Source: Candidatus Saccharimonadota bacterium (lineage in GTDB: Bacteria; Patescibacteriota; Saccharimonadia; Saccharimonadales; UBA4665). From it: DNA of 32,000 nt. Below the pieces are notes generated by a model. That model searched no databases. It was given only the letters and a program-made list of their open reading frames with translations, and was not told the origin of the DNA. The number at the start of each line of letters is the position of its first letter. Position 1 is the stretch's first letter. Positions 12,729-30,535 of the stretch are shown piece after piece. Location: contig CP025011.1 in the NCBI GenBank assembly GCA_002952755.1, forward strand, positions 630,001 through 662,000, written 5' to 3'. Position numbers and translations under genes: made by a program.

Positions 12729-13215
12729 CCCCGTGGCAAGACCACGGGGTATCATGGGTAGCAGTCAGGTATAACCATTACCAGATGGTTAACTGGCTGG
12801 ACGTTGGTGCTGGCTTGGTCTTTCCTTGGTTTCTGACATAGGCTTCGACGGTGTTCCAATTGCCAGCAGTACTGACGGTGCTGACGTAATAGCCGTCTGA
12901 CCAAAATTCCCCACCCCAGAGATCTTTCTTGAGACTTGGAAATTGCTTGAATAGTTCACGGGCCACATTGGACTTAAAGATACGTACGAACTGACCAATG
13001 CTGTATTTGGGATGGAAGCTAACTGGCAAATGGATGTGATCACCATCCGTACCGATCTGCTCAATGGTCAGTTCATAGCGTAGGCTTATTTCATATGCTG
13101 GCGCCTTACAAGCGGCAGCAATTTCTTCTTGGAGCAACGCTTTTCGATACTTAACCGGAAAGACTGGATGGTAGTGACAATCGTAGGCGCAGTGATTACT
13201 TTGAACCCATTGCAT
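12729..13215 (-). mobile_element. IS200/IS605-family element, copy 2 (upstream end not defined)
   Basis: A second, sequence-divergent tnpA has a downstream hairpin CCCCGTGG-caaga-CCACGGGG (12729-12749). I could not find the matching hairpin upstream of 13215. Confidence 0.6.
12778..13215 (-). CDS. tnpA: IS200/IS605 family Y1 transposase TnpA (divergent second copy)
   Basis: 145-aa ORF with YHPVFPVKYRKALL, HUH-like DHIHLPVSF and SDGYYVSTV. It clearly differs in sequence from copy 1. Confidence 0.8.
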   Translation of the reverse strand: MQWVQSNHCAYDCHYHPVFPVKYRKALLQEEIAAACKAPAYEISLRYELTIEQIGTDGDHIHLPVSFHPKYSIGQFVRIFKSNVARELFKQFPSLKKDLWGGEFWSDGYYVSTVSTAGNWNTVEAYVRNQGKTKPAPTSSQLTIW

Positions 13216-13300
13216 ATCTCCACCCCGTTTCCGTGTAACCCTTGAGCCCTTCTAGCCAAAAGAGGTACCCTACTGTTGCAAAGACAAGGAGGGCACCTCA

Positions 13301-13639
13301 ATGAATAATGCTACGTACTTTTTAAACCAAACACAATATGACTGGCTGGCGCACAAGCTGCCTGAGCCAGTCATAAAGACTAAACATGTTACTCCAAATA
13401 ATGAGCTACTGAATAGCATACTGTTTGTTCTCAAGACCGGCTGCCGCTGGATGGATATACCAAGCTCAGTCTGTAGCCACAACTACAGCTCTTGTTGGCG
13501 CCAACTCAACTACTGGCGGAAGTGCGGCAGGCTTAAGTTGGTATGGCAATGTGTCCTGGTGCTGCTCGACCGACAAGGAACACTTGACCTAAGTCTCGGC
13601 AACCTGGATGGGGATAGTGAACCTATTCCAAACTTTTGA
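13301..13639 (+). pseudogene. Truncated IS5-family transposase (N-terminal DUF4096-like part only)
   Basis: 112-aa ORF: NSILFVLKTGCRWMDIPS...SCWRQLNYWRKCGRLKLVW...LDLSLGNLDGDS matches the N-terminal HTH region and the first-D region of IS5/IS427-group transposases. The remaining DDE domain is absent. AAGGAGGG Shine-Dalgarno lies upstream. Confidence 0.7.
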
Positions 13640-13739
13640 AGATTTTGAATCTGTTAAGGATAAGCAAGCAGACATTGAGGCGGTTCGCCAAGTGCTTGAT
13701 GAAGATGAAGCGGCGCAGATCGGGGAGGCGGTATGTTAA
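13608..13739 (+). pseudogene. 43-codon ORF, either the orphaned 3' end of a truncated upstream gene or a small coupled ORF
   Basis: The frame reads MGIVNLFQTFEDFESVKDKQADIEAVRQVLDEDEAAQIGEAVC*. Its stop overlaps the PLD gene start (GTATGTTAA). The same frame is recognisable at the 3' end of the decayed gene at 4762-5365 (...WLGIVNL[18-nt insert with stop]FQTFEDFESVENTQ...AVRQV). Confidence 0.4.
13610..13694 (+). repeat. Diverged repeat arm B (partner of 4686-4789)
   Basis: See arm A. The shared blocks are GGGGATAGTGAACCT, ATTCCAAACTTTTGAAGA, GAATCTGTT and GTTCGCCAAGTG, in the same order. Confidence 0.7.
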
Positions 13740-14218
13740 GTCGTATCCTCCAATTCCGCAAGTCTGCCGCGCCCGATTTAGTCACATCAAAGCTGTTCAA
13801 TGAAGAGACATTCTATCCGGCTTTTCTGAAGGACCTCAAAAACTGCCAGAGTGAGCTGATTATTGAGTCGCCATTCATAACGAGTAGGCGTTTGAACCAA
13901 CTACTACCGACTTTGGAGAAACTAAAAGCCCGCAAGGTTAGAATTGTTGTTAATACTCGTGACCCTCACGAACATGACGAGGGGTATCATCGGGAAGATG
14001 CGCACCGAGCAATAGCTAAGCTCCAGCATGCGGGTGTCCACGTACTCTACACTGGTGGCCATCATCGTAAGTTAGTCATTGTTGACCGAAAGATTCTGTA
14101 CGAAGGTAGCCATAACGTGCTATCACAGAACGACAGCTCTGAAGTTATGCGCCGGATCGAGTCGGTACAACTTGCCTGGCAGATGATCGGGTTTGTGGGC
14201 TTGGATAAACACTTTTAA
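13733..14218 (+). CDS. PLD-superfamily (single HKD motif) Nuc-like nuclease/phosphodiesterase
   Basis: 161-aa ORF with a complete HKD motif, HRKLVIVDRKILYEGSHN (HxKx4Dx6GSxN). Its size matches single-HKD Nuc-type enzymes that dimerise. No signal peptide. Confidence 0.85.
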   Translation: MLSRILQFRKSAAPDLVTSKLFNEETFYPAFLKDLKNCQSELIIESPFITSRRLNQLLPTLEKLKARKVRIVVNTRDPHEHDEGYHREDAHRAIAKLQHAGVHVLYTGGHHRKLVIVDRKILYEGSHNVLSQNDSSEVMRRIESVQLAWQMIGFVGLDKHF

Positions 14219-18160: not shown

Positions 18161-18205
18161 TAGACTTTAAGTCTATGCTAAGTTGCTACATAGACTTAAA
18201 GTCTA
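18161..18205. promoter_or_regulatory. Two perfect 15-bp palindromic operators in divergent XRE/radC promoter
   Basis: TAGACTT-T-AAGTCTA (18161-18175) and TAGACTT-A-AAGTCTA (18191-18205) lie 30 bp centre to centre. A degenerate third copy, TAGACTTTTAGTTGA, starts at 18145. Confidence 0.6.
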
Positions 18206-18212
18206 TAAGTAT

Positions 18213-18662
18213 ATGGGGCAAGAACAAGTCAAGAAACTACTGACGACAGCCGACATTCTGCCGCTTTTACATGACATCGCCAGCCACCGGCAAGAGCACT
18301 TCATAGTGCTGTCGGTAGATACTGGACGAAAGCTCATCACGAAGCGGATTGTTTTTATTGGCACTATTGACTCAGTTATTGCTCATCCGCGTGAAGTATA
18401 TGCCGGAGCAATTGCTGATTTAGCTGCCGGCATAGTGGTAGCGCACAATCATCCATCGGGTGACCCAACTCCTAGCAAGCAAGACATCACCACTACGCAG
18501 CAACTTATAGCAGCCGGACAGATATTGGGAGTGAGACTATACGACCATGTAATTGTGGCAGGTAAGAGGCACTACAGCTTTTCAGCGAATGGGATGATGT
18601 TGACGGAGGCGTTTGAAGTGCAAGGGTCTTCTGGCGCGGAATTTGGCAAACTCATGCCTTAA
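18213..18662 (+). CDS. radC: RadC-like JAB/MPN domain protein
   Basis: JAMM motif VAHNHPSGDPTPSKQDITTT...LYDHVIV. The track ORF starts at TTG 18183; an ATG at 18213 (MGQEQV...) is more plausible. Confidence 0.85.
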   Translation: MGQEQVKKLLTTADILPLLHDIASHRQEHFIVLSVDTGRKLITKRIVFIGTIDSVIAHPREVYAGAIADLAAGIVVAHNHPSGDPTPSKQDITTTQQLIAAGQILGVRLYDHVIVAGKRHYSFSANGMMLTEAFEVQGSSGAEFGKLMP

Positions 18663-18767
18663 TGCTAATATTGCAAATATGATAGGCATGATCAAAGCAT
18701 AAACTCGCCGCACTGGGACACCAGGTTTATTTTTTGATGATTTCTATTCTCTAAACTTTTAGCAAAA

Positions 18768-18807
18768 AGCCGAGCACCTATGCGGTATGTCCATCGCTCG
18801 GCTTTTT
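18768..18807. terminator. Bidirectional-looking hairpin terminator
   Basis: AGCCGAGC (18768-18775) pairs with GCTCGGCT (18796-18803). It is preceded by AAAAA and followed by TTTTT. The loop is 20 nt. Confidence 0.5.
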
Positions 18808-18832
18808 GTTATTTGAAAGGTACTATACGTTT

Positions 18833-19588
18833 ATGGTTAAAACACAATTTCCCGAAATGAATTTGTTAATTGATAAGTTACACAATTCAATCAAAATCAC
18901 ACTCGGTGATAAACTCCGTGGCCTCTATTTGTTTGGCTCGCTTGTAGGTGGTGACTTTGACCCAAAAACTAGCGACATTGACCTGCTGGCTATTGTGGAG
19001 AGTGATATTAGTGAGGATGATCTGCGAAGTCTCAAGGTCATGCACCAAAACTTTGTCCGTGAGTATCCCGAATGGCGTGATCGAATAGAAGTTGCTTATG
19101 TCGGAGTCGAGGCTATGAGAAAGTTCAAGACAGACACCGTGACCATCGCACGCATTAGCCCTGGCGAGCCATTGCACTATCGGGACATGAATATTCAGTG
19201 GCTCATGGACTGGTATATGGTGCAGGAACAGGGGTTAGCCATAGAGGGGCCGTCTCCTAAAGTGTTGATTCCCGTCATTACTAAAGATGAATTTGTAGCC
19301 TCTCTTAAAGGTGAATATCCTTCTTGGCTGGAGCGGGCAAAAGAAGCACGTCGGGTCGGCTACCAGTCGTATGTCGTTTTGTCTCTGTGCCGCAGCCTAT
19401 ATGCAATTCGTTTTGGGCAGCAGGTTTCGAAGTTTAAAGGTGCATCTTGGGCGGCGACTGAATACCCACAATGGGCTCACCTTATTCAGCAAGCGACAGA
19501 ATGGCACGGATCATCGGACAACACAGACAGTCTCGATACCCAAGCCGAGACGGCACGCTTTGCTGAGTTTATGCTCGATCAGGCATAA
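18833..19588 (+). CDS. Nucleotidyltransferase, ANT(3'')/AadA-like architecture (NTP_transf_2 + DUF4111-like C-terminal domain)
   Basis: NTase motif LYLFGSLVGGDFDPKTSDIDLLAIV (GS...DxD). At ~251 aa, its length and layout parallel AadA-type aminoglycoside adenylyltransferases (LYGSAVDGGLKPHSDIDLLVTV). The substrate is not inferable. The track start 18806 is TTG; the ATG is at 18833. Confidence 0.7.
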   Translation: MVKTQFPEMNLLIDKLHNSIKITLGDKLRGLYLFGSLVGGDFDPKTSDIDLLAIVESDISEDDLRSLKVMHQNFVREYPEWRDRIEVAYVGVEAMRKFKTDTVTIARISPGEPLHYRDMNIQWLMDWYMVQEQGLAIEGPSPKVLIPVITKDEFVASLKGEYPSWLERAKEARRVGYQSYVVLSLCRSLYAIRFGQQVSKFKGASWAATEYPQWAHLIQQATEWHGSSDNTDSLDTQAETARFAEFMLDQA

Positions 19589-19697: not shown

Positions 19698-22385
19698 ATG
19701 CCCCATTGGCTCGACATCTTACTGAATGGCCCAGCTCGCTACACCGAGGCGCATAATTTAAGCCCGCTATGGACGCTGGCGGTGGTGATTGGTGCGCTGC
19801 TGGTTGAGTTTGGCGCGGCGTTCCTCTTGATTCGCCTTGTTATCTTTTTATTCGAGCACGCGCAATCGTTTTTCGCGTGGGTGCTGCGCAAGTTTGGCGT
19901 GGGCAGGCGCGAGATATCCTCCACATTTTTGCAGCTCACATTTCCGGCCGACACAACAAAATCTGCTTACGCTACGGAGCAATTGCACATTCTGATGCGC
20001 AATCTCGTAAAGCACTTTGGCTTTTGGGATCGCATGGCGGGTCATCGGCGGCCGTATTCGTTAGAGCTGGTGGCGACCAAAGAAAAAGGCATCTGCTACG
20101 TTATCCGCGTGCCGGAGCATGAAGCGACGATAGTACGGCGCACGCTTTTGTCGTTTTTGCCTGGCCTGAAGGTGGCCGAGATTGACGATTACACATCGGA
20201 GTTGGCTGGTACCGCAGTCGGCGTTGTTGAGCTTAAATTGGGCGGCGACTACCTGCTGCCGCTGGGCGTTAATAAAGCGTTGGATGAACACGACCCTATC
20301 GCATACCTCACTGGCCATATGCGCAGCCTCGCGCCGGGCGAGCTGGTTGCTTACCAAATTGTGGCTTTGCCGGTTTACGACTATACGCACCCAAACGAAC
20401 TACGCCGGATGCGGGATATCCGCCACCGCATTGCACTTAACAAAGAGCTTTCGCCGAAGTTGATGACCACTCGCCTCGATGTTCCGGCGCTCGTACTCAA
20501 GTTGCTTATCGCTCCCGTCTGGGCGCTCGGCATGGGGCTCAAGATATTCGGCGGCATCCTCGACGCCATTATGCATAACGATATACCCGACGAATGGAAG
20601 AGCAGCACTGACAAGCGGCGAGCTGGTGACCCATATGAGCAGGAGCTGGGCATGACCATCAAGGAAAAGCTCGACCAACATCTGTTTGAAGTATCTATTC
20701 GGGTGCTGGTGGCTGTGCCGGGTGGTGAAGGCGTCAGCAGCCGTTTGAGTTCAATCGTGTCGTCGTTTGAGACGTTTAGTAGTCCGCGTCAGTCCATACG
20801 GATGCGCCGTGACATTCCGTTCTTTGCGCCGGGCGACAAGCATTTGCCCCGGTTCCGCGAGCGGGTGCTGTCGCCGCACGTTATTAGCCACCCGACGATT
20901 CTTTCGGCTTCGGAACTAGCCGACCTGTATCACTTCCCGAATACTGACCTCACCAAGACGGAAGGCCTAGTTAAAAGCCGCAGCCGCGACTTGCCAACGC
21001 CATTATCTTTGAAGGGCGACAACGCGAAGTTCGACGTTGTAGTGGGGGCTAACGAGTTTGGCGGTGAGGTGCAAGAAATTGGCATAAGCCTGGAGCAGCG
21101 CCAAAAGCATACTTACATTATCGGGAAGACCGGCACGGGCAAGACGACGTTGCTCAAGAGCTCCATCTACCAGGATATGCTCAATGGCAAAGGATTGGCT
21201 GTATTCGACCCGCATGGCGATATGTTCCGCGAACTGTTGCAGATTGTGCCGGAGCACCGCCGTAAAGATGTGATTGTATTTGATCCATCCGATCGCGAGC
21301 ATCCCGTCGGCCTCAATATCCTCGACCCGGGCATTGAGTTTGACGATGAAGACGATAAGCATGAATGGATTACGAGCACGGTGCTGTCCGTGTTTGCGAA
21401 GTTGGCCGACGAAAACCAGTGGGGGCCGCGCATGGAGCATATTTTGCGCAATACCACGCTGACCGCACTACAAACTCCGAACCCTAGCCTCTATACCTTG
21501 CAACGGTTGCTGACTGACAAGAAATATCAAAAAGAGGTTGCGAAGAAGCTCAAAGACCCAGCGCTCAAGCAGTTCTGGGATAAGGAATTTAAGATGATGG
21601 GCAGTATGCAGATGTCTAACGCCACCGCACCGCTGACGCATCGTTTAGGGCACTTCATTACGGCTAAAATGTCGCGGCACATTTTGCTGCAAGAAAAGAG
21701 TACCGTGCGGATTGCCGATGTTATGAACGAAGGCAAGATTTTGCTCGTTAACCTATCTAAAGGCGACATCGGCGAAGATCAGAGCTTTTTCTTCGGAACA
21801 ATTCTTACGTCGTTTATCTGGATGGCGGCATACCAGCGTACTAAAATACCAGAAAAGAAACGCCGGGATTTCTTCGTGTACGTGGACGAGTTCCAGAACT
21901 TTGCTACGCCGCAGTTTGGCGATATCACTAGCGAGGGCCGGAAGTTCCATGTTTCGCTGATCGTCTCACACCAAAACATTGCCCAGATTGAAGACAAAAA
22001 CCTGGTGAAGATAGTGGCGGGCAACGCGCATACGATGATTTGCCTGAAAGCCAACCCGGAAGACGAAGCATTCATCTTGCCATACATGAAGCCGGAGGTT
22101 GAGAAGGGGGACATCGTGAATCTCGCGCCGTATCACTTCTATATGAAGATGACCGGTGATGAAAGCGAGGATGCCTTTTCAGGCCAGACAGTGCCGCTGG
22201 ATGTCGAGGAGTCGGAGAAGGTTGCTAAGACGGTTCTAGCGAATAGCCGGAAGCAATACGCAACGCCGAAGGCTGAGGTTGAGAAGCAGATGGAAAAGCT
22301 GTTTGGCGACAGCGTATCCGATAAGAGGCCAACAGCCAAAGCTGAACCAAAGTCGAAGATGATATCCAGGGTACATGGGCTTTAG
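19698..22385 (+). CDS. VirD4/TraD-like (type IV coupling protein-like, FtsK/HerA-class) membrane ATPase with long N-terminal extension
   Basis: 895-aa ORF. Hydrophobic helices lie near the N-terminus (LWTLAVVIGALLVEFGAAFLLIRLVIFLF) and at ~aa 270 (LIAPVWALGMGLKIFGGIL). Walker A is IIGKTGTGKTTLL and Walker B is FFVYVDEFQNF, followed by GRKFHVSLIVSHQNIAQ. Confidence 0.75.
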   Translation: MPHWLDILLNGPARYTEAHNLSPLWTLAVVIGALLVEFGAAFLLIRLVIFLFEHAQSFFAWVLRKFGVGRREISSTFLQLTFPADTTKSAYATEQLHILMRNLVKHFGFWDRMAGHRRPYSLELVATKEKGICYVIRVPEHEATIVRRTLLSFLPGLKVAEIDDYTSELAGTAVGVVELKLGGDYLLPLGVNKALDEHDPIAYLTGHMRSLAPGELVAYQIVALPVYDYTHPNELRRMRDIRHRIALNKELSPKLMTTRLDVPALVLKLLIAPVWALGMGLKIFGGILDAIMHNDIPDEWKSSTDKRRAGDPYEQELGMTIKEKLDQHLFEVSIRVLVAVPGGEGVSSRLSSIVSSFETFSSPRQSIRMRRDIPFFAPGDKHLPRFRERVLSPHVISHPTILSASELADLYHFPNTDLTKTEGLVKSRSRDLPTPLSLKGDNAKFDVVVGANEFGGEVQEIGISLEQRQKHTYIIGKTGTGKTTLLKSSIYQDMLNGKGLAVFDPHGDMFRELLQIVPEHRRKDVIVFDPSDREHPVGLNILDPGIEFDDEDDKHEWITSTVLSVFAKLADENQWGPRMEHILRNTTLTALQTPNPSLYTLQRLLTDKKYQKEVAKKLKDPALKQFWDKEFKMMGSMQMSNATAPLTHRLGHFITAKMSRHILLQEKSTVRIADVMNEGKILLVNLSKGDIGEDQSFFFGTILTSFIWMAAYQRTKIPEKKRRDFFVYVDEFQNFATPQFGDITSEGRKFHVSLIVSHQNIAQIEDKNLVKIVAGNAHTMICLKANPEDEAFILPYMKPEVEKGDIVNLAPYHFYMKMTGDESEDAFSGQTVPLDVEESEKVAKTVLANSRKQYATPKAEVEKQMEKLFGDSVSDKRPTAKAEPKSKMISRVHGL

Positions 22386-22392
22386 GCTCTTG

Positions 22393-23109
22393 CTACACCT
22401 CCGGCTGAAACTTATTCCGACTCCAATGCCACAGCACGGGGTGAACTTGCGAAGGATTGATGCCGCTCCCCTTGAGGAGTTCTTGCCAGGCTAGCTCGGT
22501 CTGCAAGGATGTTGCGCCGGGTGGCGTAACGCCAAGATAAACGCTACTTTGCAAAACATGCGTGTCAGGTATGATCGAAATCTCCTGTGGGTTCTTAAAC
22601 TGCACATCTGTAAAGCGCGACAAGATGAACGGCCAATAGTTGGAGAGTTTCGGGCCGGAAAGATACGGAAAGCGTTTGCGGTGCGTTTTCTGCAACAGCG
22701 TAATAAGCTGACCCGCGTCGCTCTCGGCCTCTATGATGATATTTCGTGGATCACCTTCGTAATATTCATGCAGTGTCTGTGCTATCGTCGTCCAAATTAA
22801 TGTATGCTTGTTGGGTTGCAGGGCTAATTTATGCCTTACGAGATCAGCTCGAATTTGCTCAATCGGCATTTCGGCTAAGTGTTCGGGGAAGAAGACGTAG
22901 CGTGTCGTTTCATCCTCCCAAGTTGCTAACGCCGCAGCCCACATCGCAGGCGAACTACGTTGGAAATTAATGCAAACGGGCAATGTAAAATACAAGTAGT
23001 TTTCGCGACTACCAAGTGGCAAGCCCGGATTAATCTCATGTTGTGCGAGCGTCGGAATTAAACCCTGCTCATACAGCGTAAGTAAGCGTTTAACTTTATC
23101 TAATTGCAT
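22393..23109 (-). CDS. HhH-GPD-like DNA glycosylase candidate
   Basis: 238-aa ORF. FPYLSGPKLSNYWPFILSRF...EISIIPDTHVLQSSVYLGV parallels the endonuclease III-type HhH, Gly/Pro loop and catalytic Asp (LPGVGRKTANVVL......VDTHIFRV). Match by eye only. Confidence 0.45.
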   Translation of the reverse strand: MQLDKVKRLLTLYEQGLIPTLAQHEINPGLPLGSRENYLYFTLPVCINFQRSSPAMWAAALATWEDETTRYVFFPEHLAEMPIEQIRADLVRHKLALQPNKHTLIWTTIAQTLHEYYEGDPRNIIIEAESDAGQLITLLQKTHRKRFPYLSGPKLSNYWPFILSRFTDVQFKNPQEISIIPDTHVLQSSVYLGVTPPGATSLQTELAWQELLKGSGINPSQVHPVLWHWSRNKFQPEV

Positions 23110-23121
23110 ACCTGCTGCACC

Positions 23122-23745
23122 TTACTCATGTGACTCCCCGGCAGGTTCTTTATGTCGTAGATACGCCTGATAATCTGTGTCGTTGTCGATAGCTTGCTTC
23201 AGAGCGCTGCGTATTACTTTGGTCCGGCTATTGTTTTTGACAAACTGAGCCCAGTCTAGGTAGCGGCGCTCCCGCCCACTCAGCACCAGATGAAAGCGAT
23301 TCTTCTCAGGCTTATCTTCGTAGGTGTTAATAAACGTTTGAAGAATGTCCTCTAAATTTTCTTTGCCGTACTCGGCTACCTGCAGTAGATCGGACTCGAT
23401 GCCATGTATAAACATCTGGTTAAAGTGGCGGTGCTTCTTGCCTTGCCACAAGACCAATGTAGGCTTGCGTAGTTGTAGTGCCAATGTAATCTGATGGCCG
23501 GTACTGAAGTTGGACACAGTGTCCTCTATGATTACCAGCTCTGCTTCACGGATTGCCTCAACGCAGGCTTTATAGATCGATTTGATATTGAGCTCTTTGT
23601 TGCCGGTATGCATATACCGCTCGGTTTCATCTAGCCAGTCGCGAGTAAGGATGTGGCCGTTGTTTACCAGATAGTCGCGAATGGCGTGATAGTCTGCGCC
23701 GTACTTGGCGAGTTCGGCAGTCGAGCAGGAAAAGTAGACCTTCAT
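23122..23745 (-). CDS. Nucleoside 2-deoxyribosyltransferase/DNPH1-like domain fused to a C-terminal ribbon-helix-helix-like segment
   Basis: The N-terminal ~145 aa align by eye with DNPH1/Rcl. MKVYFSCS...ADYHAIRDYLVNNGHILTRDW parallels VYFCGSIRGG..ALYARIVSRLRRYGKVLTEHV, and EAELVIIEDTVSNFSTGHQITLALQLRKPTLVLW parallels QADVVVAEVTQPSLGVGYELGRAVALGKPILCLF. The C-terminus RFHLVLSGRERRYLDWAQ...SRTKVIRSALKQAI looks like a CopG/RHH strand plus helices. Confidence 0.45.
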   Translation of the reverse strand: MKVYFSCSTAELAKYGADYHAIRDYLVNNGHILTRDWLDETERYMHTGNKELNIKSIYKACVEAIREAELVIIEDTVSNFSTGHQITLALQLRKPTLVLWQGKKHRHFNQMFIHGIESDLLQVAEYGKENLEDILQTFINTYEDKPEKNRFHLVLSGRERRYLDWAQFVKNNSRTKVIRSALKQAIDNDTDYQAYLRHKEPAGESHE

Positions 23746-23825: not shown

Positions 23826-24353
23826 ATGAGTGAATTACAGGATTACTTATCTACCAACCCACCTCTACTGGAAATGGTAGTTGGTTATTTAGTGAAGGAT
23901 AGTGAGGTGCTGCTTGGGGTGCGTACTCGAGTATCTGACGGCCTAGGACACCTGATAGTTTCTGGCATTGGCGGCCGCTTGGAAGAAGGTGAAAGCGCCG
24001 AAGATGCGCTAGTGCGAGAAGTTTTAGAGGAGATTGAAGTACAAGTTACCGACTACCAGAAAGTGGGCCATGTCGTATGCCTCTCACCCCACCACCCTTC
24101 GTGGAACTTAAGAGTTACTTATTATCTGGTAACTGATTTTGAGGGTGAGCCAAAAAAGACGGAAGATATTGATCCTAATTGGTATCCAAAGGATGCATTA
24201 CCCCTGCGTGATATGTGGCCCGATAATCGAATAACCGTTCCGCTGGTTGTAAGCGGCAAACACATAGCAGGTAGCTTTTTATACGGTGCCGACGGCCAGA
24301 TCGTGGAACATGACCTACGAGAGTTGGCCCCCAACGAGCCCATTCCAGCTTAG
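23826..24353 (+). CDS. NUDIX hydrolase
   Basis: Nudix box GRLEEGESAEDALVREVLEEIEV fits Gx5Ex7REUxEExGU, except for E in place of the final G. Confidence 0.85.
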   Translation: MSELQDYLSTNPPLLEMVVGYLVKDSEVLLGVRTRVSDGLGHLIVSGIGGRLEEGESAEDALVREVLEEIEVQVTDYQKVGHVVCLSPHHPSWNLRVTYYLVTDFEGEPKKTEDIDPNWYPKDALPLRDMWPDNRITVPLVVSGKHIAGSFLYGADGQIVEHDLRELAPNEPIPA

Positions 24354-25483
24354 CTACGCTCCAAGCCCTCAGGCTCAGCTCCAAAGTATTCCATTACTAA
24401 CTCGTTGTATCGGAAGAAAGAGTAAAGAAGATTCTTGACCTCCTCAACCCCGATTTCACCGTCAAGACGGAATAGTTTTTTGCGCTTGTATGCGCGCGCA
24501 TAGCCGGACTGATCCGAATTTTTCCAGTCATACCGCAGCCGTTTTGCGTGCTCTTGTTTTGTATAGATTAAAGTGGCGCAATCGAAATGCCTGAACGCCT
24601 GTAGCTCTTTGTTCCAGATAAAATGCGCGAAGCGGTGCAGGACATATTTGTCCCCGGCACTTACACGGGAACTTGTTGGTACAAGTTCTTCGATCTGAAA
24701 CTCCTTTTCGCCGTTCTTGTAGTCTGTTATGTAAAAGATAGTCTTTAATAAGGGAAAGGTGACCTCTAGCCTGCCAGTCGGGTCGTTTCTTGCATGAACC
24801 GTTACGCCCCTGTATTTAGGGTCGTCCAGTTTACTTTTGTCGAAGTATACCCCGTACCATTGGTCAAATTCCATCGTCTGATCTAGGTTGCGGGCCTGGG
24901 AGTAGCGAATCGGGTCTAGGGCAATCTTTAGTTTTACTTTTCCGTCACTCAATATGCGAGATAGCATTAACGGCGTATCGACAAAACGCGCACGGAAGAA
25001 GCGACGCAGAAAAGGGTGATAGTAAACAAGATTATCGCCAATGATGATCCCTTGCGCTTGTAGGTTCATTCGCTCATTAACTTCAGTCAGCCCGTAGCGA
25101 TCCACAGAAAAAGATACCGGCAACTCAAGTTTATCCGACTGCGTAGCGTAGTAATCAATTCCAGGGTGTGCGGCCATCGCGTCGAGTGCTACCATTCCGC
25201 CCAATGCTTGCTCTAGGCTTAGATTGCTCATTGGCACCACCCAATCCAGTTGAGGAACAAGCTGAATGAGGTCAGCCACACCTTTATCGGCGGCAGCTTC
25301 TTTGTATATTTGGTATAACTGATCGTAATGCGGTTTTATCTTGGGGGAAACCCTGTAGACTCCAAGATGCAGCGACCCTTGATTGATGTTGTTTAGTTCA
25401 AAAGCAATGTTGCGTGCCAGTGTAAAAACAGTGCGTCTGAGGTCTGGGTCATTACTGAATTTTTCAATAACAAGGCTCGTCAT
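24350..25483 (-). CDS. Hypothetical protein (377 aa), third gene of the Replic_Relax/protease operon
   Basis: A long uninterrupted ORF. Its ATG directly abuts the protease stop (GCATAAATGACG). No motif recognised. The 3' end overlaps the convergent Nudix gene by 4 nt. Confidence 0.7.
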   Translation of the reverse strand: MTSLVIEKFSNDPDLRRTVFTLARNIAFELNNINQGSLHLGVYRVSPKIKPHYDQLYQIYKEAAADKGVADLIQLVPQLDWVVPMSNLSLEQALGGMVALDAMAAHPGIDYYATQSDKLELPVSFSVDRYGLTEVNERMNLQAQGIIIGDNLVYYHPFLRRFFRARFVDTPLMLSRILSDGKVKLKIALDPIRYSQARNLDQTMEFDQWYGVYFDKSKLDDPKYRGVTVHARNDPTGRLEVTFPLLKTIFYITDYKNGEKEFQIEELVPTSSRVSAGDKYVLHRFAHFIWNKELQAFRHFDCATLIYTKQEHAKRLRYDWKNSDQSGYARAYKRKKLFRLDGEIGVEEVKNLLYSFFRYNELVMEYFGAEPEGLERS

Positions 25484-26404
25484 TTATGCCTCTGTAACCA
25501 TCCGCTGGAAGCTAGGGGCAACTTCTGGGCAACTTTTGCACTTAATATTTCGACTGTCCCAAAGCATTTCGTCATTCCTTATGATGAAATGCTCAAGCCC
25601 AACGGAATCAATTGCGCCTGACATGCACAATTCAAGTAAGGTGGTGGTTCTCTTTTCCTCGCCGACATCAGCGTTCAACTCAACCTTTGACGCAAAAGCA
25701 GTATGAATGGGTATTACGAAAGAAGTATAAAAGGGGTGCTCTGCGGTCGGGGTTAATCCATCAGAATTTATGCCGCATAGACGCCCCTGTTCGTTAAAAA
25801 CCGGCCCTCCACTCATGCCGCCATCTATGGGCGCGTTGGTCTGAAACCGAGGCGTTCTACGAGTTATTGACGTATCTATGTCCTCAACAACGCCTTCTGA
25901 TGTGCGCATAGCAAGCACATGCTTAGATTGACCATCTGCTTGCTGTAAGTTTTTCATATTGGGATAGCCAAGCGAGACTATCCGACTGCCGACGCGTGGC
26001 ATATGAAGGTCTATTTGAACTCTAGGATTCAGCTTACATACTTGCTCGGCCATCTTCCCCGAACACTTGTCCGCAACCAGTATTGCCAGGTCGCTATTAG
26101 CTATCAAATGCACTTTGGCGACATGCCATACTACTAGGCCTAGTCCCTTCAAGGGCTGTAGAATTTCTAAGTTAAAGCTCACGTCCATATCTTGGGAGGA
26201 CCAATCCGGCAGGGTAATATCAAGATTCTCATGATCTTTGATGTACTGTTCGGGGAGGTGTTTGGCTGTAAGAAAAACCCCGGGCATTAGGAATGTGGCT
26301 GAGCCAATTATTCGTTTATGTCCGGCTCTTACGTCGGCGACAGGGAGGCAGACCATGTCTGACATGCTCTTAAAGTATTTTTTCCAATTATCCTTAGCCG
26401 TCAT
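25484..26404 (-). CDS. Cytoplasmic trypsin-like (S1/chymotrypsin fold) serine protease
   Basis: 306-aa ORF with no signal peptide. Candidate triad: His in VFLTAKH, Asp in NSDLAIL, Ser in DGGMSGGPVF (a GDSGGP variant). A ~90-aa C-terminal extension contains CKSC. Confidence 0.8.
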   Translation of the reverse strand: MTAKDNWKKYFKSMSDMVCLPVADVRAGHKRIIGSATFLMPGVFLTAKHLPEQYIKDHENLDITLPDWSSQDMDVSFNLEILQPLKGLGLVVWHVAKVHLIANSDLAILVADKCSGKMAEQVCKLNPRVQIDLHMPRVGSRIVSLGYPNMKNLQQADGQSKHVLAMRTSEGVVEDIDTSITRRTPRFQTNAPIDGGMSGGPVFNEQGRLCGINSDGLTPTAEHPFYTSFVIPIHTAFASKVELNADVGEEKRTTTLLELCMSGAIDSVGLEHFIIRNDEMLWDSRNIKCKSCPEVAPSFQRMVTEA

Positions 26405-27190
26405 TTATATTTCCTCCCAAATCATACTCGCAACTCCATGTTTTTGGATCTTCTCTAGTGTTGTGATACGAAGCTGCAAATCTTCATCGCTCCAATCGTC
26501 CTCTATGAGCTTCTTGACGCGTCGCTTTACATAAATTAAGTCGGCCATAGTAGCGCAGATAAACAGAGCGATTGGTACAGGGCCGTTGTCATCATTCCAC
26601 TCGCTTGCCAGGTAGTCCGCATAGTCTTTGAGACGTTTGCGGAGTTGGTAGCGCGGCAGTGTTTGCTCAAAGCTCTCTATAAAGTAGTTGGTTGTTTCGT
26701 CACCTTGCTGCTTCGAGAAGAAAAAGTGCGGCTTAAGTTCATCAAGAAAGCGGTGCGAGCTTTCGGGATCAGCATAGTCAGCGGACAGTACAAACGAGTA
26801 CTTCAATTCGCCGCTGCTCTTTGCTCGCAGCGCAATACAACAATCCGTCACCAGCAAACACCTATCAATAAAAACTTGTGTGCGGCCTGGCTCTTTGTAC
26901 CGCTTCCTGAGTTCTTCGTCGGGATAAGTGCCAACCTCGCGTAAATACCGAATACCATTGAGCGCTAGATAGTAGATTGCCGGTTTGGATTTAGCGATAA
27001 AGTCAGTAGCATCGTAGTGCCAATCTACATACTGCTTGTCTCTCAAATCTTTTAACCAACTTATTATCCGTCTTTTATCTTTGTGTTCTAGTAATGCTTG
27101 TATGTGTGTTCTGTTTAGGAATCTATATTTATATAGTAGTTTTAGTATTTCTTGTTGTTTGGTGGTGATAGCGGGGAGTGTGTTAGTCAT
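26405..27190 (-). CDS. Replication-relaxation (Replic_Relax) family protein with N-terminal wHTH
   Basis: 261-aa ORF. The N-terminus ITTKQQEILKLLYKYRFLNRTHIQALL is the family's characteristic opening. The later segment KPHFFFSKQQGDETTNYFIESFEQT corresponds to the family's pDa.f....ffvEvDrgT block, but with substitutions. Confidence 0.75.
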   Translation of the reverse strand: MTNTLPAITTKQQEILKLLYKYRFLNRTHIQALLEHKDKRRIISWLKDLRDKQYVDWHYDATDFIAKSKPAIYYLALNGIRYLREVGTYPDEELRKRYKEPGRTQVFIDRCLLVTDCCIALRAKSSGELKYSFVLSADYADPESSHRFLDELKPHFFFSKQQGDETTNYFIESFEQTLPRYQLRKRLKDYADYLASEWNDDNGPVPIALFICATMADLIYVKRRVKKLIEDDWSDEDLQLRITTLEKIQKHGVASMIWEEI

Positions 27191-27295
27191 TGTATGTGAT
27201 TGGCGTGAGTGAATATATTTTGCCTACCCCTCCTACACCGATTTATTTAATAGGTAAGGGCTACGCTAAAACGAGTATATCAGATAGTGCAGATA

Positions 27296-27323
27296 CAAAA
27301 ATTGTCACCGCCCTTGGTGACAA
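27296..27323 (-). terminator. Rho-independent terminator for the 88-aa gene
   Basis: The minus strand reads TTGTCACC-aagggc-GGTGACAA followed by TTTTTG (stem 27302-27309 / 27316-27323, T-run 27296-27301). Confidence 0.55.
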
Positions 27324-27345
27324 AGTACAGATAAAAAATTAAGCC

Positions 27346-27695: not shown

Positions 27696-27914
27696 ATGAC
27701 AGACGATAAAGCCTCTATTGAACGCACGGCCGCCAGGCTTCGGAAGGCGCGGCAAACTAAAAGCATGACGCAAGCTGAGGTGGCAAAGAAAGCCGGAATT
27801 AGCGAAAATCATTACGCGCAAATTGAGCGTGCCGAGAAGAACCCGACAGTCTCAACTTTTAAGAATATCGTTAAAGCCCTTGGCGTTTCTTCGGCGGAAA
27901 TATTAGATAAGTAA
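27696..27914 (+). CDS. XRE-family helix-turn-helix transcriptional regulator
   Basis: LRKARQTKSMTQAEVAKKAGISENHYAQIERAEKNPTVSTFKNIVKALGV. Confidence 0.85.
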   Translation: MTDDKASIERTAARLRKARQTKSMTQAEVAKKAGISENHYAQIERAEKNPTVSTFKNIVKALGVSSAEILDK

Positions 27915-28842: not shown

Positions 28843-29067
28843 ATGAGGGTAATCATGTTATTAACCAGCCAACGATCAGGGGAAATCGAGACGCAACTGC
28901 CGGGTGCGGATGATGCCGACACCGACAATGTAGAGGCACTGCGCCAGATTCTAGCCAAGCAGGAACGGCGCGAGGTGGGCTACAGCGAAGCCCAGGAGAT
29001 CGGCGCGTCGCTCATTGAGTTTTATCAAATACTGGCAGAAGAGGCGTCTGATGACTCCGAAGGATAA
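28843..29067 (+). CDS. Small acidic hypothetical protein overlapping the recombinase start
   Basis: 74-aa ORF (alternative ATG at 28855). Asp/Glu-rich (GADDADTDNVE..., ...EEASDDSEG). Its last 17 nt overlap the recombinase ATG at 29051. Confidence 0.4.
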   Translation: MRVIMLLTSQRSGEIETQLPGADDADTDNVEALRQILAKQERREVGYSEAQEIGASLIEFYQILAEEASDDSEG

Positions 29068-30535
29068 AGCTGTTATTCTCGCCCGTGTATCGAGTAAATC
29101 TCAAGAAGACGAGGGCTACTCGCTAGACTCCCAGGTGAAGCTGCTGCACTCGTACTGTGAGAACAAAAACCTTGCCATTGCTATGACTTTCAAAATCACC
29201 GAGTCAGCTTCTAAGGCTACTCAGCGCCGCACGTTCAACGAGGCAATGAAGTACATCGAAGACCACAAAATTAAGCACCTCATCATCGAAAAGGTAGATC
29301 GCCACGTCCGCAACTTGCACGACGCCGTAACGACGCACGACTGGCTCATGGCTGACGAAGACCGGCACGTGCACTTCGTCAAAGATTCCCTCATCATGCA
29401 CAAAAATTCGCGTTCGCAGGAGTGGCTCAACTGGGGTATCCGTGTGGTGATGTCCAAAAACTACATCGACAACTTGCGCGAAGAAGCCATGAAAGGTTGG
29501 GCGGAAAAACTAGCCCAAGGTTGGCTACCCTCAACTCCGCCACCCGGCTACATAACGATCACCGAGAACGGTAAGCGCATACACGTGCCGGATGCCGTGA
29601 CGAGTAAGCTCATGTTCAACGTCTTTCGGTTTTATCTGAATCCTGGCGAGTCGCTCGATTCGACCATTCGCTACATGATTAAGCTTGGCATTGTTACCCG
29701 CCAGGGCAAGCCGTATGTCAAAAGCCATTTGCAGCGCATTCTTATGAATCCGTTTTACATCGGTATCAATCGCTTTAACGGCAAGGATTACCCTGGTGCA
29801 CAAGAAACCTTTATCCCAAAGACGCTCTTCAAGCGTGTACAGGACAAATTACACGGCGGCAGGCCACGAAGCTACAACAAGCACTACTCGCCGTTACAGG
29901 GCGTAATCCGCTGCGAAGATTGCGGGTCAATCGTTACTTGGCAGAAACAGAAGGGCCACTACTACGGTGTCTGTCGGCGGCTTACCGAGGCTTGCAAGCA
30001 AGGCAAGATGCTACGCGAGGACTACGTCGAGGAAATGATTGTAGCGGAACTTAAAAAGCTCGTCTGCCCGTCGCCGGAGATTATTGATTGGGTAGCCAAC
30101 GCCATGCGCACGCAGTACAAAGACCGGATTGAAGAGCGTGAGCGCATTGTAGACACGCTAGGGGCTCAACTAAAGCGCATCGACACTATGGACGAGACTT
30201 TGTACGATGACAAGCTCTCAGGCGAGATAAGTAAAGAAAGGTACGAGGAGAAGCATGGACTGTTCATGAAGCAGAAGGCCGAAATCGAGAGCCAACTTAA
30301 CAACGTCGATGCGTCTATGAGCGAACGGCTGGAACAGCGCCTAGTAATCCTAGAACTATCCCAAAAAGCAGCCGATTTATACGCCAAGAAGACGCCAGAG
30401 CAAAAACGCCTGATAATTTCCAAACTTTTCGAGAATCTAACCTTAAAAGGAGGTGTCGTATCTGTTAAATATTCAAAGTTCGCTCTAGCAATCGCCGATA
30501 AAGTTCAAAAAACCCGTAATTTACTGGAGGCCTAA
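29051..30535 (+). CDS. Large serine recombinase (resolvase domain + recombinase domain + zinc ribbon + coiled coil)
   Basis: Catalytic region AVILARVSSKSQEDEGYSLDSQ...EKVDRHVRN. Zinc-ribbon-like CEDCGSIVTW...GVCRR. Long Glu/Lys-rich coiled-coil tail. The track ORF starts at TTG 29015; ATG 29051 (MTPKDK...) is more plausible. Confidence 0.9.
   Translation: MTPKDKAVILARVSSKSQEDEGYSLDSQVKLLHSYCENKNLAIAMTFKITESASKATQRRTFNEAMKYIEDHKIKHLIIEKVDRHVRNLHDAVTTHDWLMADEDRHVHFVKDSLIMHKNSRSQEWLNWGIRVVMSKNYIDNLREEAMKGWAEKLAQGWLPSTPPPGYITITENGKRIHVPDAVTSKLMFNVFRFYLNPGESLDSTIRYMIKLGIVTRQGKPYVKSHLQRILMNPFYIGINRFNGKDYPGAQETFIPKTLFKRVQDKLHGGRPRSYNKHYSPLQGVIRCEDCGSIVTWQKQKGHYYGVCRRLTEACKQGKMLREDYVEEMIVAELKKLVCPSPEIIDWVANAMRTQYKDRIEERERIVDTLGAQLKRIDTMDETLYDDKLSGEISKERYEEKHGLFMKQKAEIESQLNNVDASMSERLEQRLVILELSQKAADLYAKKTPEQKRLIISKLFENLTLKGGVVSVKYSKFALAIADKVQKTRNLLEA

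Follow-up and report, generated by a model that had tools for sequence, protein, structure and literature searches.

Three minus-strand genes that follow one another without a single intergenic nucleotide are found in a 32,000-nucleotide stretch of a Candidatus Saccharimonadota genome (assembly GCA_002952755.1, contig CP025011.1, positions 630,001 to 662,000), the whole of which is referred to here as the window. The explanation that we favour, and to which we give about an even chance, is that they are a relaxase gene (gene 1) and two independent cargo genes (genes 2 and 3), which together make up a compact transcription unit at the DNA-processing end of a mobilizable or conjugative element that is integrated in the genome. 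The three do not form a conserved system, and in the other loci read genes 2 and 3 are found apart. The three genes are the following.

26405 to 27190, minus strand: gene 1, 261 amino acids, a Replic_Relax/MOB_C-type relaxase-like protein (RR) with an N-terminal winged helix-turn-helix (wHTH) and a PD-(D/E)XK-like domain.
25484 to 26404, minus strand: gene 2, 306 amino acids, a cytoplasmic chymotrypsin-fold serine protease with the triad H49/D105/S198, a C-terminal subdomain of about 60 residues and a disordered 12-residue tail.
24350 to 25483, minus strand: gene 3, 377 amino acids, a member of a large unannotated family (the 377 family) with a helical N-domain (residues 1-115) and a beta-rich C-domain.

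The initial annotation of this stretch had proposed a dedicated system made of a sensor or repressor, a protease and an effector, a proposal that by its own account would fall if the trio were not kept together elsewhere. The neighbourhoods of the relatives speak against it. None of 13 non-redundant loci of the 377 family has an adjacent protease gene, and an adjacent RR or 377-family gene is found at none of four loci of the protease family. The proteases of these four loci are 62%, 44% and 39% identical to gene 2, the last being present in two contigs, and all their neighbours differ; at one of the loci an RR gene lies 4 kb from the protease relative. Of the four RR relatives seen, none heads such an operon; they are either solitary or located in front of other genes. 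The arrangement of the trio is repeated only in two contigs that come from other samples and are identical in sequence (L001 and L002).

Among the relatives of gene 3 whose contexts could be read, the closest (P0002, P0003 and P0005, 55-58% identical to it) belong to two sub-clades with about 57% identity between them, and all three are the third gene of operons of the type I cyclic oligonucleotide-based antiphage signalling system (CBASS) with Cap15. In each of the three loci, the 377-family gene comes directly after the genes for a CD-NTase (297 amino acids) and Cap15 (209 amino acids), with spacings of -35, 3 and 8 nt (L003:4513-7155, L007:6472-9143 and L038:4906-7570; the block is also present in L004, L005, L017 and L039). 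Given identities between the three loci of 61-73% for the CD-NTases and of 56-69% for Cap15, the block has been conserved over substantial divergence. The loci are sister elements of that in the window, having in common with it a phospholipase D (PLD)-like gene (65% identical), a helix-turn-helix (HTH) gene and, at a distance of 3-5 kb, RR genes. The likeness to CBASS is one of operon position, whereas the 377 family is unrelated to CD-NTase and Cap15 (homology to either was considered and is not supported by hhalign) and is not a described Cap protein; in the window, Pfam and PADLOC scans find neither a CD-NTase nor a Cap15.

The contexts of the more distant members of the 377 family are diverse. 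One member adjoins type IV secretion system (T4SS) genes and an HTH gene (L006), another has a serine recombinase gene and a terminase-like gene as neighbours, and others are found beside AAA_21 and RloB genes and integrases, between Mrr_cat and GmrSD, or after a superfamily 1 (SF1) helicase-restriction endonuclease gene and RmuC. Further members occur among insertion sequence (IS) elements on Pseudomonas megaplasmids, on Leptospira plasmids and on one unannotated 'phage' contig, all of them uninformative. P0183 (L028-L035) represents a single lineage in which the gene occupies a stable chromosomal site in 116 contigs, near an ABC exporter, a PBP and an arginine deiminase operon, which means that not all members of the family are on mobile elements. 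A zinc-ribbon-rich family without Pfam assignment adjoins 377-family genes with a 4-nt overlap or is found near them (L021:10972-12060, L022:3-1565, L009:15483-17138 and L011:13253-14287). Several relatives also have neighbour genes of 770-850 amino acids, for which no homology was found among themselves or to the type IV coupling protein (T4CP) of the window. The named genomes that carry relatives are mostly Candidatus Saccharibacteria, with one Gracilibacteria and two metagenome-assembled genomes labelled Gammaproteobacteria, on which grounds a host of the candidate phyla radiation is likely for the window, probably one with a Saccharibacteria-like genome. A metagenome scan returned three loci only, scans of IMG/VR with all three proteins gave no match, and a profile search of 5.8 billion proteins with a broad alignment of the 377 family (A2) gave almost nothing new.

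The product of gene 3 had been described as lacking any motif that could be named, and this holds in the libraries searched: it has no match in Pfam, PADLOC, NCBIfam or PHROGs, and no consistent Pfam family was obtained when 50 diverse members of the family were scanned singly. At 50% clustering the family comprises 1,060 representatives when the threshold is E<=1e-3 and 139 when it is E<=1e-30, and most members are 350-450 amino acids long. The predicted model of gene 3 has a predicted local distance difference test score (pLDDT) of 85.9 and a predicted template modelling score (pTM) of 0.83; Foldseek finds no fold match for it at E<=1e-3 in PDB or BFVD, and it has no sequence relative in PDB. 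Residues D190, H287, H299 and K336 are invariant across the family, and D128, R160, R161, E205, W209, E265, E266, D301 and N360 are nearly so, a pattern that suggests an enzyme. A triphosphate-tunnel or CYTH-like fold was considered and set aside, the barrel hits (lipocalin, avidin, mimivirus RNA triphosphatase and a VTC-like polyphosphatase) being weak, with probabilities <=0.03. The ligase KxDG, HKD, 2H, ART and AEP motifs, compared by eye with those of the family, do not fit in order or spacing. Forms of about 690 amino acids (P0149, P0162, P0163, P0173, P0176, P0177 and P0180) differ in their N-terminal domain and are prolonged by a second, C-terminal half of about 310 residues with Cys motifs at its end; neither part has a Pfam hit, the C-terminal half is unlike any neighbour gene, and a likeness of the N-terminus to the HK97 prohead protease is unsupported by Pfam and by sequence search of PDB.

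These contexts bear on the possibility that gene 3 is instead a backbone enzyme for DNA processing (replication, priming or a relaxosome accessory) that works with the RR protein and the coupling protein, the protease here and the CBASS pair elsewhere being variable upstream cargo. We consider this improbable. A 377-family gene is indeed kept in five related elements (the window, L003, L006, L007 and L038) that share PLD, HTH or RR genes while the upstream content varies, in L006 it follows the T4SS genes and the HTH gene, and other members are on plasmids or beside integrases. Many members are, however, in non-mobile or defence contexts, such as the chromosomal site seen in 116 contigs and those with Mrr/GmrSD and RloB neighbours. 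Moreover, gene 3 resembles no relaxase, Rep, primase or nuclease of PDB in fold or sequence. The family libraries, the PDB sequence search and Foldseek give no similarity to relaxases, Rep proteins or primases (HUH, Rep_trans, AEP, PD-(D/E)XK), and gene 3 is accordingly not the known relaxase, primase or Rep family that the initial annotation had envisaged as a refuting case.

Gene 1 had been assigned to Replic_Relax with an N-terminal wHTH, and it matches Pfam Replic_Relax (PF13814) at 3.2e-10; the score of 40.9 bits exceeds the cut-off (25.3), and positions 1-183 of the 191 in the profile are covered. It also matches, at 1.5e-6, a PHROG annotated as 'replication initiation by nicking'. This Pfam entry corresponds to the MOB_C relaxases (PMC5357655, PMC12857230, PMC6736028), a relaxase family by experiment (PMC12857230). 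The prototype, TraX of pAD1, is a relaxase that resembles restriction endonucleases and has a D-E-E motif for metal binding (PMC12857230, PMC6736028). In earlier work the family was classed as a PD-(D/E)XK domain fused to an HTH and was predicted to be a transcriptional regulator (PMC3424549). Gene 1 is a new member of this known family. In an alignment of five sequences (gene 1, three relatives of the candidate phyla radiation (CPR) type and a 261-residue TraX-like protein of pTEF1), E172 occurs in all five and E175 is retained (E172-x-x-E175), while gene 1 has KPH, with His155, where the three CPR-type relatives have PLPD. The substitution of the acidic block that had been noticed in this protein thus applies to the first acidic ligand, where Asp has become His, and not to the second block, which is retained.

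When compared with the MOB_C relaxases (TraX of pAD1/pTEF1 and MobC of CloDF13), gene 1 has in common with them a profile match above threshold, the N-terminal wHTH and the E-x-x-E pair. With the pTEF1 protein, annotated as a 'replication-relaxation family protein', it further shares its size (261 amino acids) and its proximity to a T4CP gene, which that protein likewise adjoins. It differs in having His155 (KPH for PLPD), in being only about 21-26% identical to TraX-like proteins, and in its location on an integrated element of a CPR-like genome, with two unrelated genes translationally coupled 3' of it. A tblastn search with the RR protein against phages and plasmids gave no match. The genes of the window that accompany the trio, and the region upstream of it, are given below.

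19698 to 22385, plus strand: an 895-residue VirD4/TraD-like coupling protein (T4CP-like ATPase), Pfam TrwB_AAD_bind, DUF87 and TraG-D_C.
29015 to 30535, plus strand: a large serine recombinase, Pfam Resolvase, Recombinase and Zn_ribbon_recom.
27696 to 27914, plus strand: a 72-residue HTH_3 (Cro/C1-type) regulator, Pfam HTH_3 at 1.2e-15, divergent from genes 1-3.
23826 to 24353, plus strand: a NUDIX hydrolase, Pfam NUDIX at 2.9e-13, convergent with gene 3.
13733 to 14218, plus strand: a PLD-like (Nuc-type) gene, Pfam PLDc_2.
27191 to 27345, minus strand: the intergenic region upstream of gene 1, with a terminator-like hairpin and repeats, a presumed promoter or possible origin-of-transfer (oriT)-type site.

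The gene for the coupling protein lies 4 kb from gene 1 and that for the large serine recombinase 2 kb from it, and for this reason gene 1, a putative relaxase, is most likely one of the mobility genes of an integrated element that can be mobilized. The coupling protein is probably the partner of gene 1, a type IV coupling protein association being present here, and the serine recombinase is probably the integrase of the element. The initial annotation had offered, as its own alternative, a replication or relaxation module of the island; with a T4CP-like gene and a serine recombinase nearby, this finds support in the case of gene 1 alone. The coupling protein matches the NCBIfam models SXT_TraD (1.9e-14) and conju_CD1115 (1.7e-12), and a far stronger match, over its whole length, is to phrog_5156 (9e-58), a phage family of unknown function. 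Given that this match outdoes those to the conjugation models, the element could be phage-like instead of conjugative.

The mobile-element genes occupy approximately 12.7-31 kb of the window, and the first 12 kb carry ordinary chromosomal or accessory genes. Besides the trio, the stretch contains an IS200 transposase, an IS5 fragment, the PLD-like gene, a DUF3800 gene, RadC, an AadA-like nucleotidyltransferase, the coupling protein, the NUDIX gene, the HTH_3 regulator, a histidine phosphatase and the large serine recombinase. No tRNA gene was found in the window, and the GC content is even across it. Other loci that carry genes of the 377 or the protease family repeatedly contain RR, serine recombinase, PLD and HTH genes as well, homologues of the serine recombinase being present in four of them. 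In BLAST comparisons, the PLD gene of the window is 65% identical to that beside the CBASS-377 block in L007, which indicates a shared element family, and 46% identical to that of L006. The HTH_3 regulator is 50% identical to the HTH gene located just 5' of the 377-family gene in L006 (BLAST, L006/L018).

Several other observations concern this stretch. The IS200-type transposase, the IS5-family fragment (DUF4096) and the PLD/Nuc-like gene are clustered at 12778-14218. At 18183-19588, a RadC-like JAB gene and the gene for the AadA-like nucleotidyltransferase are found just 5' of the coupling-protein gene, which recalls the leading regions of conjugative elements. Between the coupling-protein and NUDIX genes, two minus-strand genes (238 and 207 amino acids, 12 nt apart) occupy 22393-23745; they have no family hit in any library and were seen only in contigs of identical sequence.

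The presence of a DNA-binding protein and a protease in a mobile-element locus is a likeness to ImmR/ImmA of ICEBs1, on which the initial annotation had drawn. In that model, the RR protein would be a repressor or sensor that is cleaved by the protease, releasing the expression or the activity of a 377-residue effector. In ICEBs1, however, an HTH_3 repressor (ImmR) is paired with a metalloprotease (ImmA), whereas gene 2 codes for a serine protease and gene 1 for a DNA binder of a relaxase family; neither an HTH_3 repressor nor a metalloprotease of the COG2856/M78 type is found in genes 1 and 2. The wHTH of the RR protein, the former prediction of Replic_Relax as a transcriptional regulator (PMC3424549), the change of its first catalytic Asp to His, which would suit a non-catalytic binder, and the single transcription unit for three genes are in line with such a model. 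It is nonetheless very unlikely: adjacency of RR and protease genes occurs nowhere else in the loci read, Replic_Relax is experimentally a relaxase family (PMC12857230), and E172 and E175 are retained. Furthermore, anti-repressors of the ImmA type are metalloproteases that act on HTH_3 repressors, and the HTH_3 gene of the window is separate from the trio.

Gene 2 matches Pfam Trypsin_2 at 4.5e-11, and also Trypsin. The plausible triad seen at the outset is intact, H49, D105 and S198 being invariant and in the family order in an alignment of 14 protease sequences. A profile search of PDB matches HtrA, DegP and DegS. The predicted model (pLDDT 82.8, pTM 0.83) has a double beta-barrel fold, for which Foldseek finds DegS-deltaPDZ (5e-11) and also V8/Esp/Spl and HtrA proteases. 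As had been stated, the protease has no signal peptide, no hydrophobic signal segment being found at its N-terminus, and it does carry a C-terminal extension, which in the model forms a small additional beta/alpha subdomain at residues ~240-295. Pfam finds no PDZ domain in gene 2, and its scores with the NCBIfam HtrA models are far under their cut-offs; without a PDZ domain or an export signal, it does not fall within the HtrA/DegP family proper. Gene 2 is, therefore, a new member of a known family, having the fold and the catalytic triad of the HtrA/DegS and V8/Spl proteases and differing from them in the lack of a signal peptide and of a PDZ domain, in its own C-terminal subdomain, in its cytoplasmic location and in its mobile-element context. 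In the two contigs with the 39%-identical relative (L015:8001-10899 and L016:7195-10093), the protease is followed on the same strand by genes of 219 and 421 amino acids (gaps of 87 and 13 nt), and Fic and Replic_Relax genes are within 4 kb of it.

In PADLOC, gene 2 matches RT-Protease_XI (2e-12), LmuA (6e-6) and Avs1b, in each case through the protease part of the profile only. These are exactly the systems in which cytoplasmic trypsin-like proteases are found next to the gene of a partner of about 42 kDa, as in the pro-nuclease/protease pairs of Hachiman (HamM with protease-HamA), AVAST, Lamassu and defence-associated reverse transcriptases (DRT) (Tuck et al., Science 2025, PMC12799240), and genes 2 and 3 share this arrangement with them. 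They differ in that in the known pairs the gene of a metallo-beta-lactamase (MBL)-fold nuclease lies immediately upstream of the protease gene (PMC12799240), whereas gene 3 lies downstream, matches no Pfam family, Lactamase_B included, and gives no fold match of the MBL kind. In addition, gene 2 is a stand-alone protein of 306 residues, not fused to a sensor, be it HamA, Avs1a, LmuA or a reverse transcriptase (RT), and the pair is not conserved elsewhere.

This comparison raises the question of whether genes 2 and 3 are a protease and a pro-effector, the former cleaving and activating, or regulating, the product of the latter, with the RR gene supplying only the promoter and the 377 protein being a swappable downstream module that is wired to CD-NTase and Cap15 on the sister elements. 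The two genes are coupled at zero gap, and the 377-family genes that follow Cap15 are also tightly coupled to their upstream gene (-35, 3 and 8 nt). The PADLOC matches of gene 2 (RT-Protease_XI, LmuA, Avs1b), the activation of a pro-nuclease of about 42 kDa by a trypsin-like protease in such contexts (PMC12799240), and the enzyme-like invariant residues of the 377 family (D, H, H, K, R, R, E, E) also favour it. Against this, no other locus read pairs the two families, the 377 protein is not of the MBL fold, gene 3 is downstream of the protease and not upstream, and gene 2 has no sensor domain. The product of gene 3 (P0001) is collinear with its protease-less relatives, with no insertion or loop fit to act as a gate for the protease, and the protease tail that forms the junction seems to be the product of a secondary read-through. 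The protease and pro-effector pair is, in our view, unlikely. Slightly less likely still is its broader form, in which the 377 family would be a new and widespread enzyme module of conflict systems (about 1,000 clusters), wired to CBASS elsewhere and controlled here by a protease, and so a non-MBL counterpart of the protease-gated pro-nucleases.

The junctions themselves have to be read with some caution. The coordinates in the list of open reading frames agree with the initial annotation in that genes 1, 2 and 3 (27190-26405, 26404-25484 and 25483-24350) leave no nucleotides between them. Both junctions do have the stop-start string in common as well: at each, a TAA stop is directly followed by ATG within the same 10 nt, ATAAATGACG, and TAAATGAC is restricted to these two junctions within the window. 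Shine-Dalgarno (SD)-like GGAGG and AGAGG sequences sit 5-9 nt 5' of the ATGs of genes 2 and 3. A Met-Thr start (ATGAC) is present in all three genes and in the nearby HTH gene, and four of the 16 other same-strand neighbour pairs of the window, counted from the open reading frame lists, are at <=3 nt or overlap. As Met-Thr starts are shared by these genes and tight spacing is frequent in the window, the tight packing and the shared string are a weak sign of special design, and the identity of the string adds little information beyond TAA and ATG. The second junction is formed by the 12-residue C-terminal tail of the protease, which is unique to gene 2 among 14 homologues and disordered in the predicted model; the abutment of genes 2 and 3 seems to have arisen secondarily, by juxtaposition or read-through. 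At the other end, gene 3 and the convergent NUDIX gene overlap by 4 nt at their 3' ends, and a terminator scan found no terminator 3' of gene 3. From this organization we infer that genes 1-3 are co-transcribed.

Upstream of gene 1, a terminator-bounded promoter region had been proposed. The terminator part of this stands, given that a hairpin at 27323-27302 is followed by a T-run and is the terminator of the preceding 88-residue gene, while for the promoter part a scan of 27191-27300 with the sigma-70 consensus gave no hit. Direct repeats of 15 nt, at 27286-27300 and 27324-27338 (plus strand, AGTGCAGATACAAAA and AGTACAGATAAAAAA), flank the hairpin. The hairpin and its repeats (27286-27338) could be a candidate protein-binding or oriT-type site. 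The repeat motif is absent upstream of the relatives of gene 1, and no Rfam family was found between 22 and 30 kb in the window.

In the favoured explanation, gene 1 would bind the DNA of the element through its winged helix and nick it through the restriction-endonuclease-like domain, to be transferred with the help of the coupling ATPase encoded nearby, while the large serine recombinase would integrate and excise the element. Genes 2 and 3 would be independently mobile cargo, stacked behind the promoter of the relaxase gene and translationally coupled to it, the former a stand-alone cytoplasmic DegS/V8-like serine protease and the latter a probable enzyme of a big unannotated family whose closest relatives serve as the third gene of CD-NTase and Cap15 CBASS operons. 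Judging by their patchy occurrence on mobile elements and their defence-type neighbours, both are probably conflict or defence genes, acting alone or with other partners. Several points weigh against this explanation. The relaxase activity of gene 1 is uncertain, as its first acidic ligand is a His, and no VirB4 or other mating-pore gene was found in the window. The label of cargo for gene 3 comes from the distribution of its family, and the 13 loci of this family and the four of the protease family are mostly from poorly annotated CPR genomes. The protease domain of gene 2 resembles those of defence systems in which the protease cleaves and activates a partner (PADLOC; PMC12799240). Finally, the two successive junctions, each without a gap and with an SD-like sequence, do favour co-expression, which is compatible with a functional link.

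It follows from the absence of the trio elsewhere that it is not worth pursuing as a new defence or regulatory machine. What the window documents is a MOB_C-type relaxase together with a coupling protein and a serine recombinase in a CPR-like genome, for which such mobile elements are poorly described. The 377 family, in turn, is large and without annotation; its fold is predicted with confidence but has no match, and its invariant residues are like those of enzymes. If its link with CBASS is functional, the family would be a new component of CBASS-type immunity.

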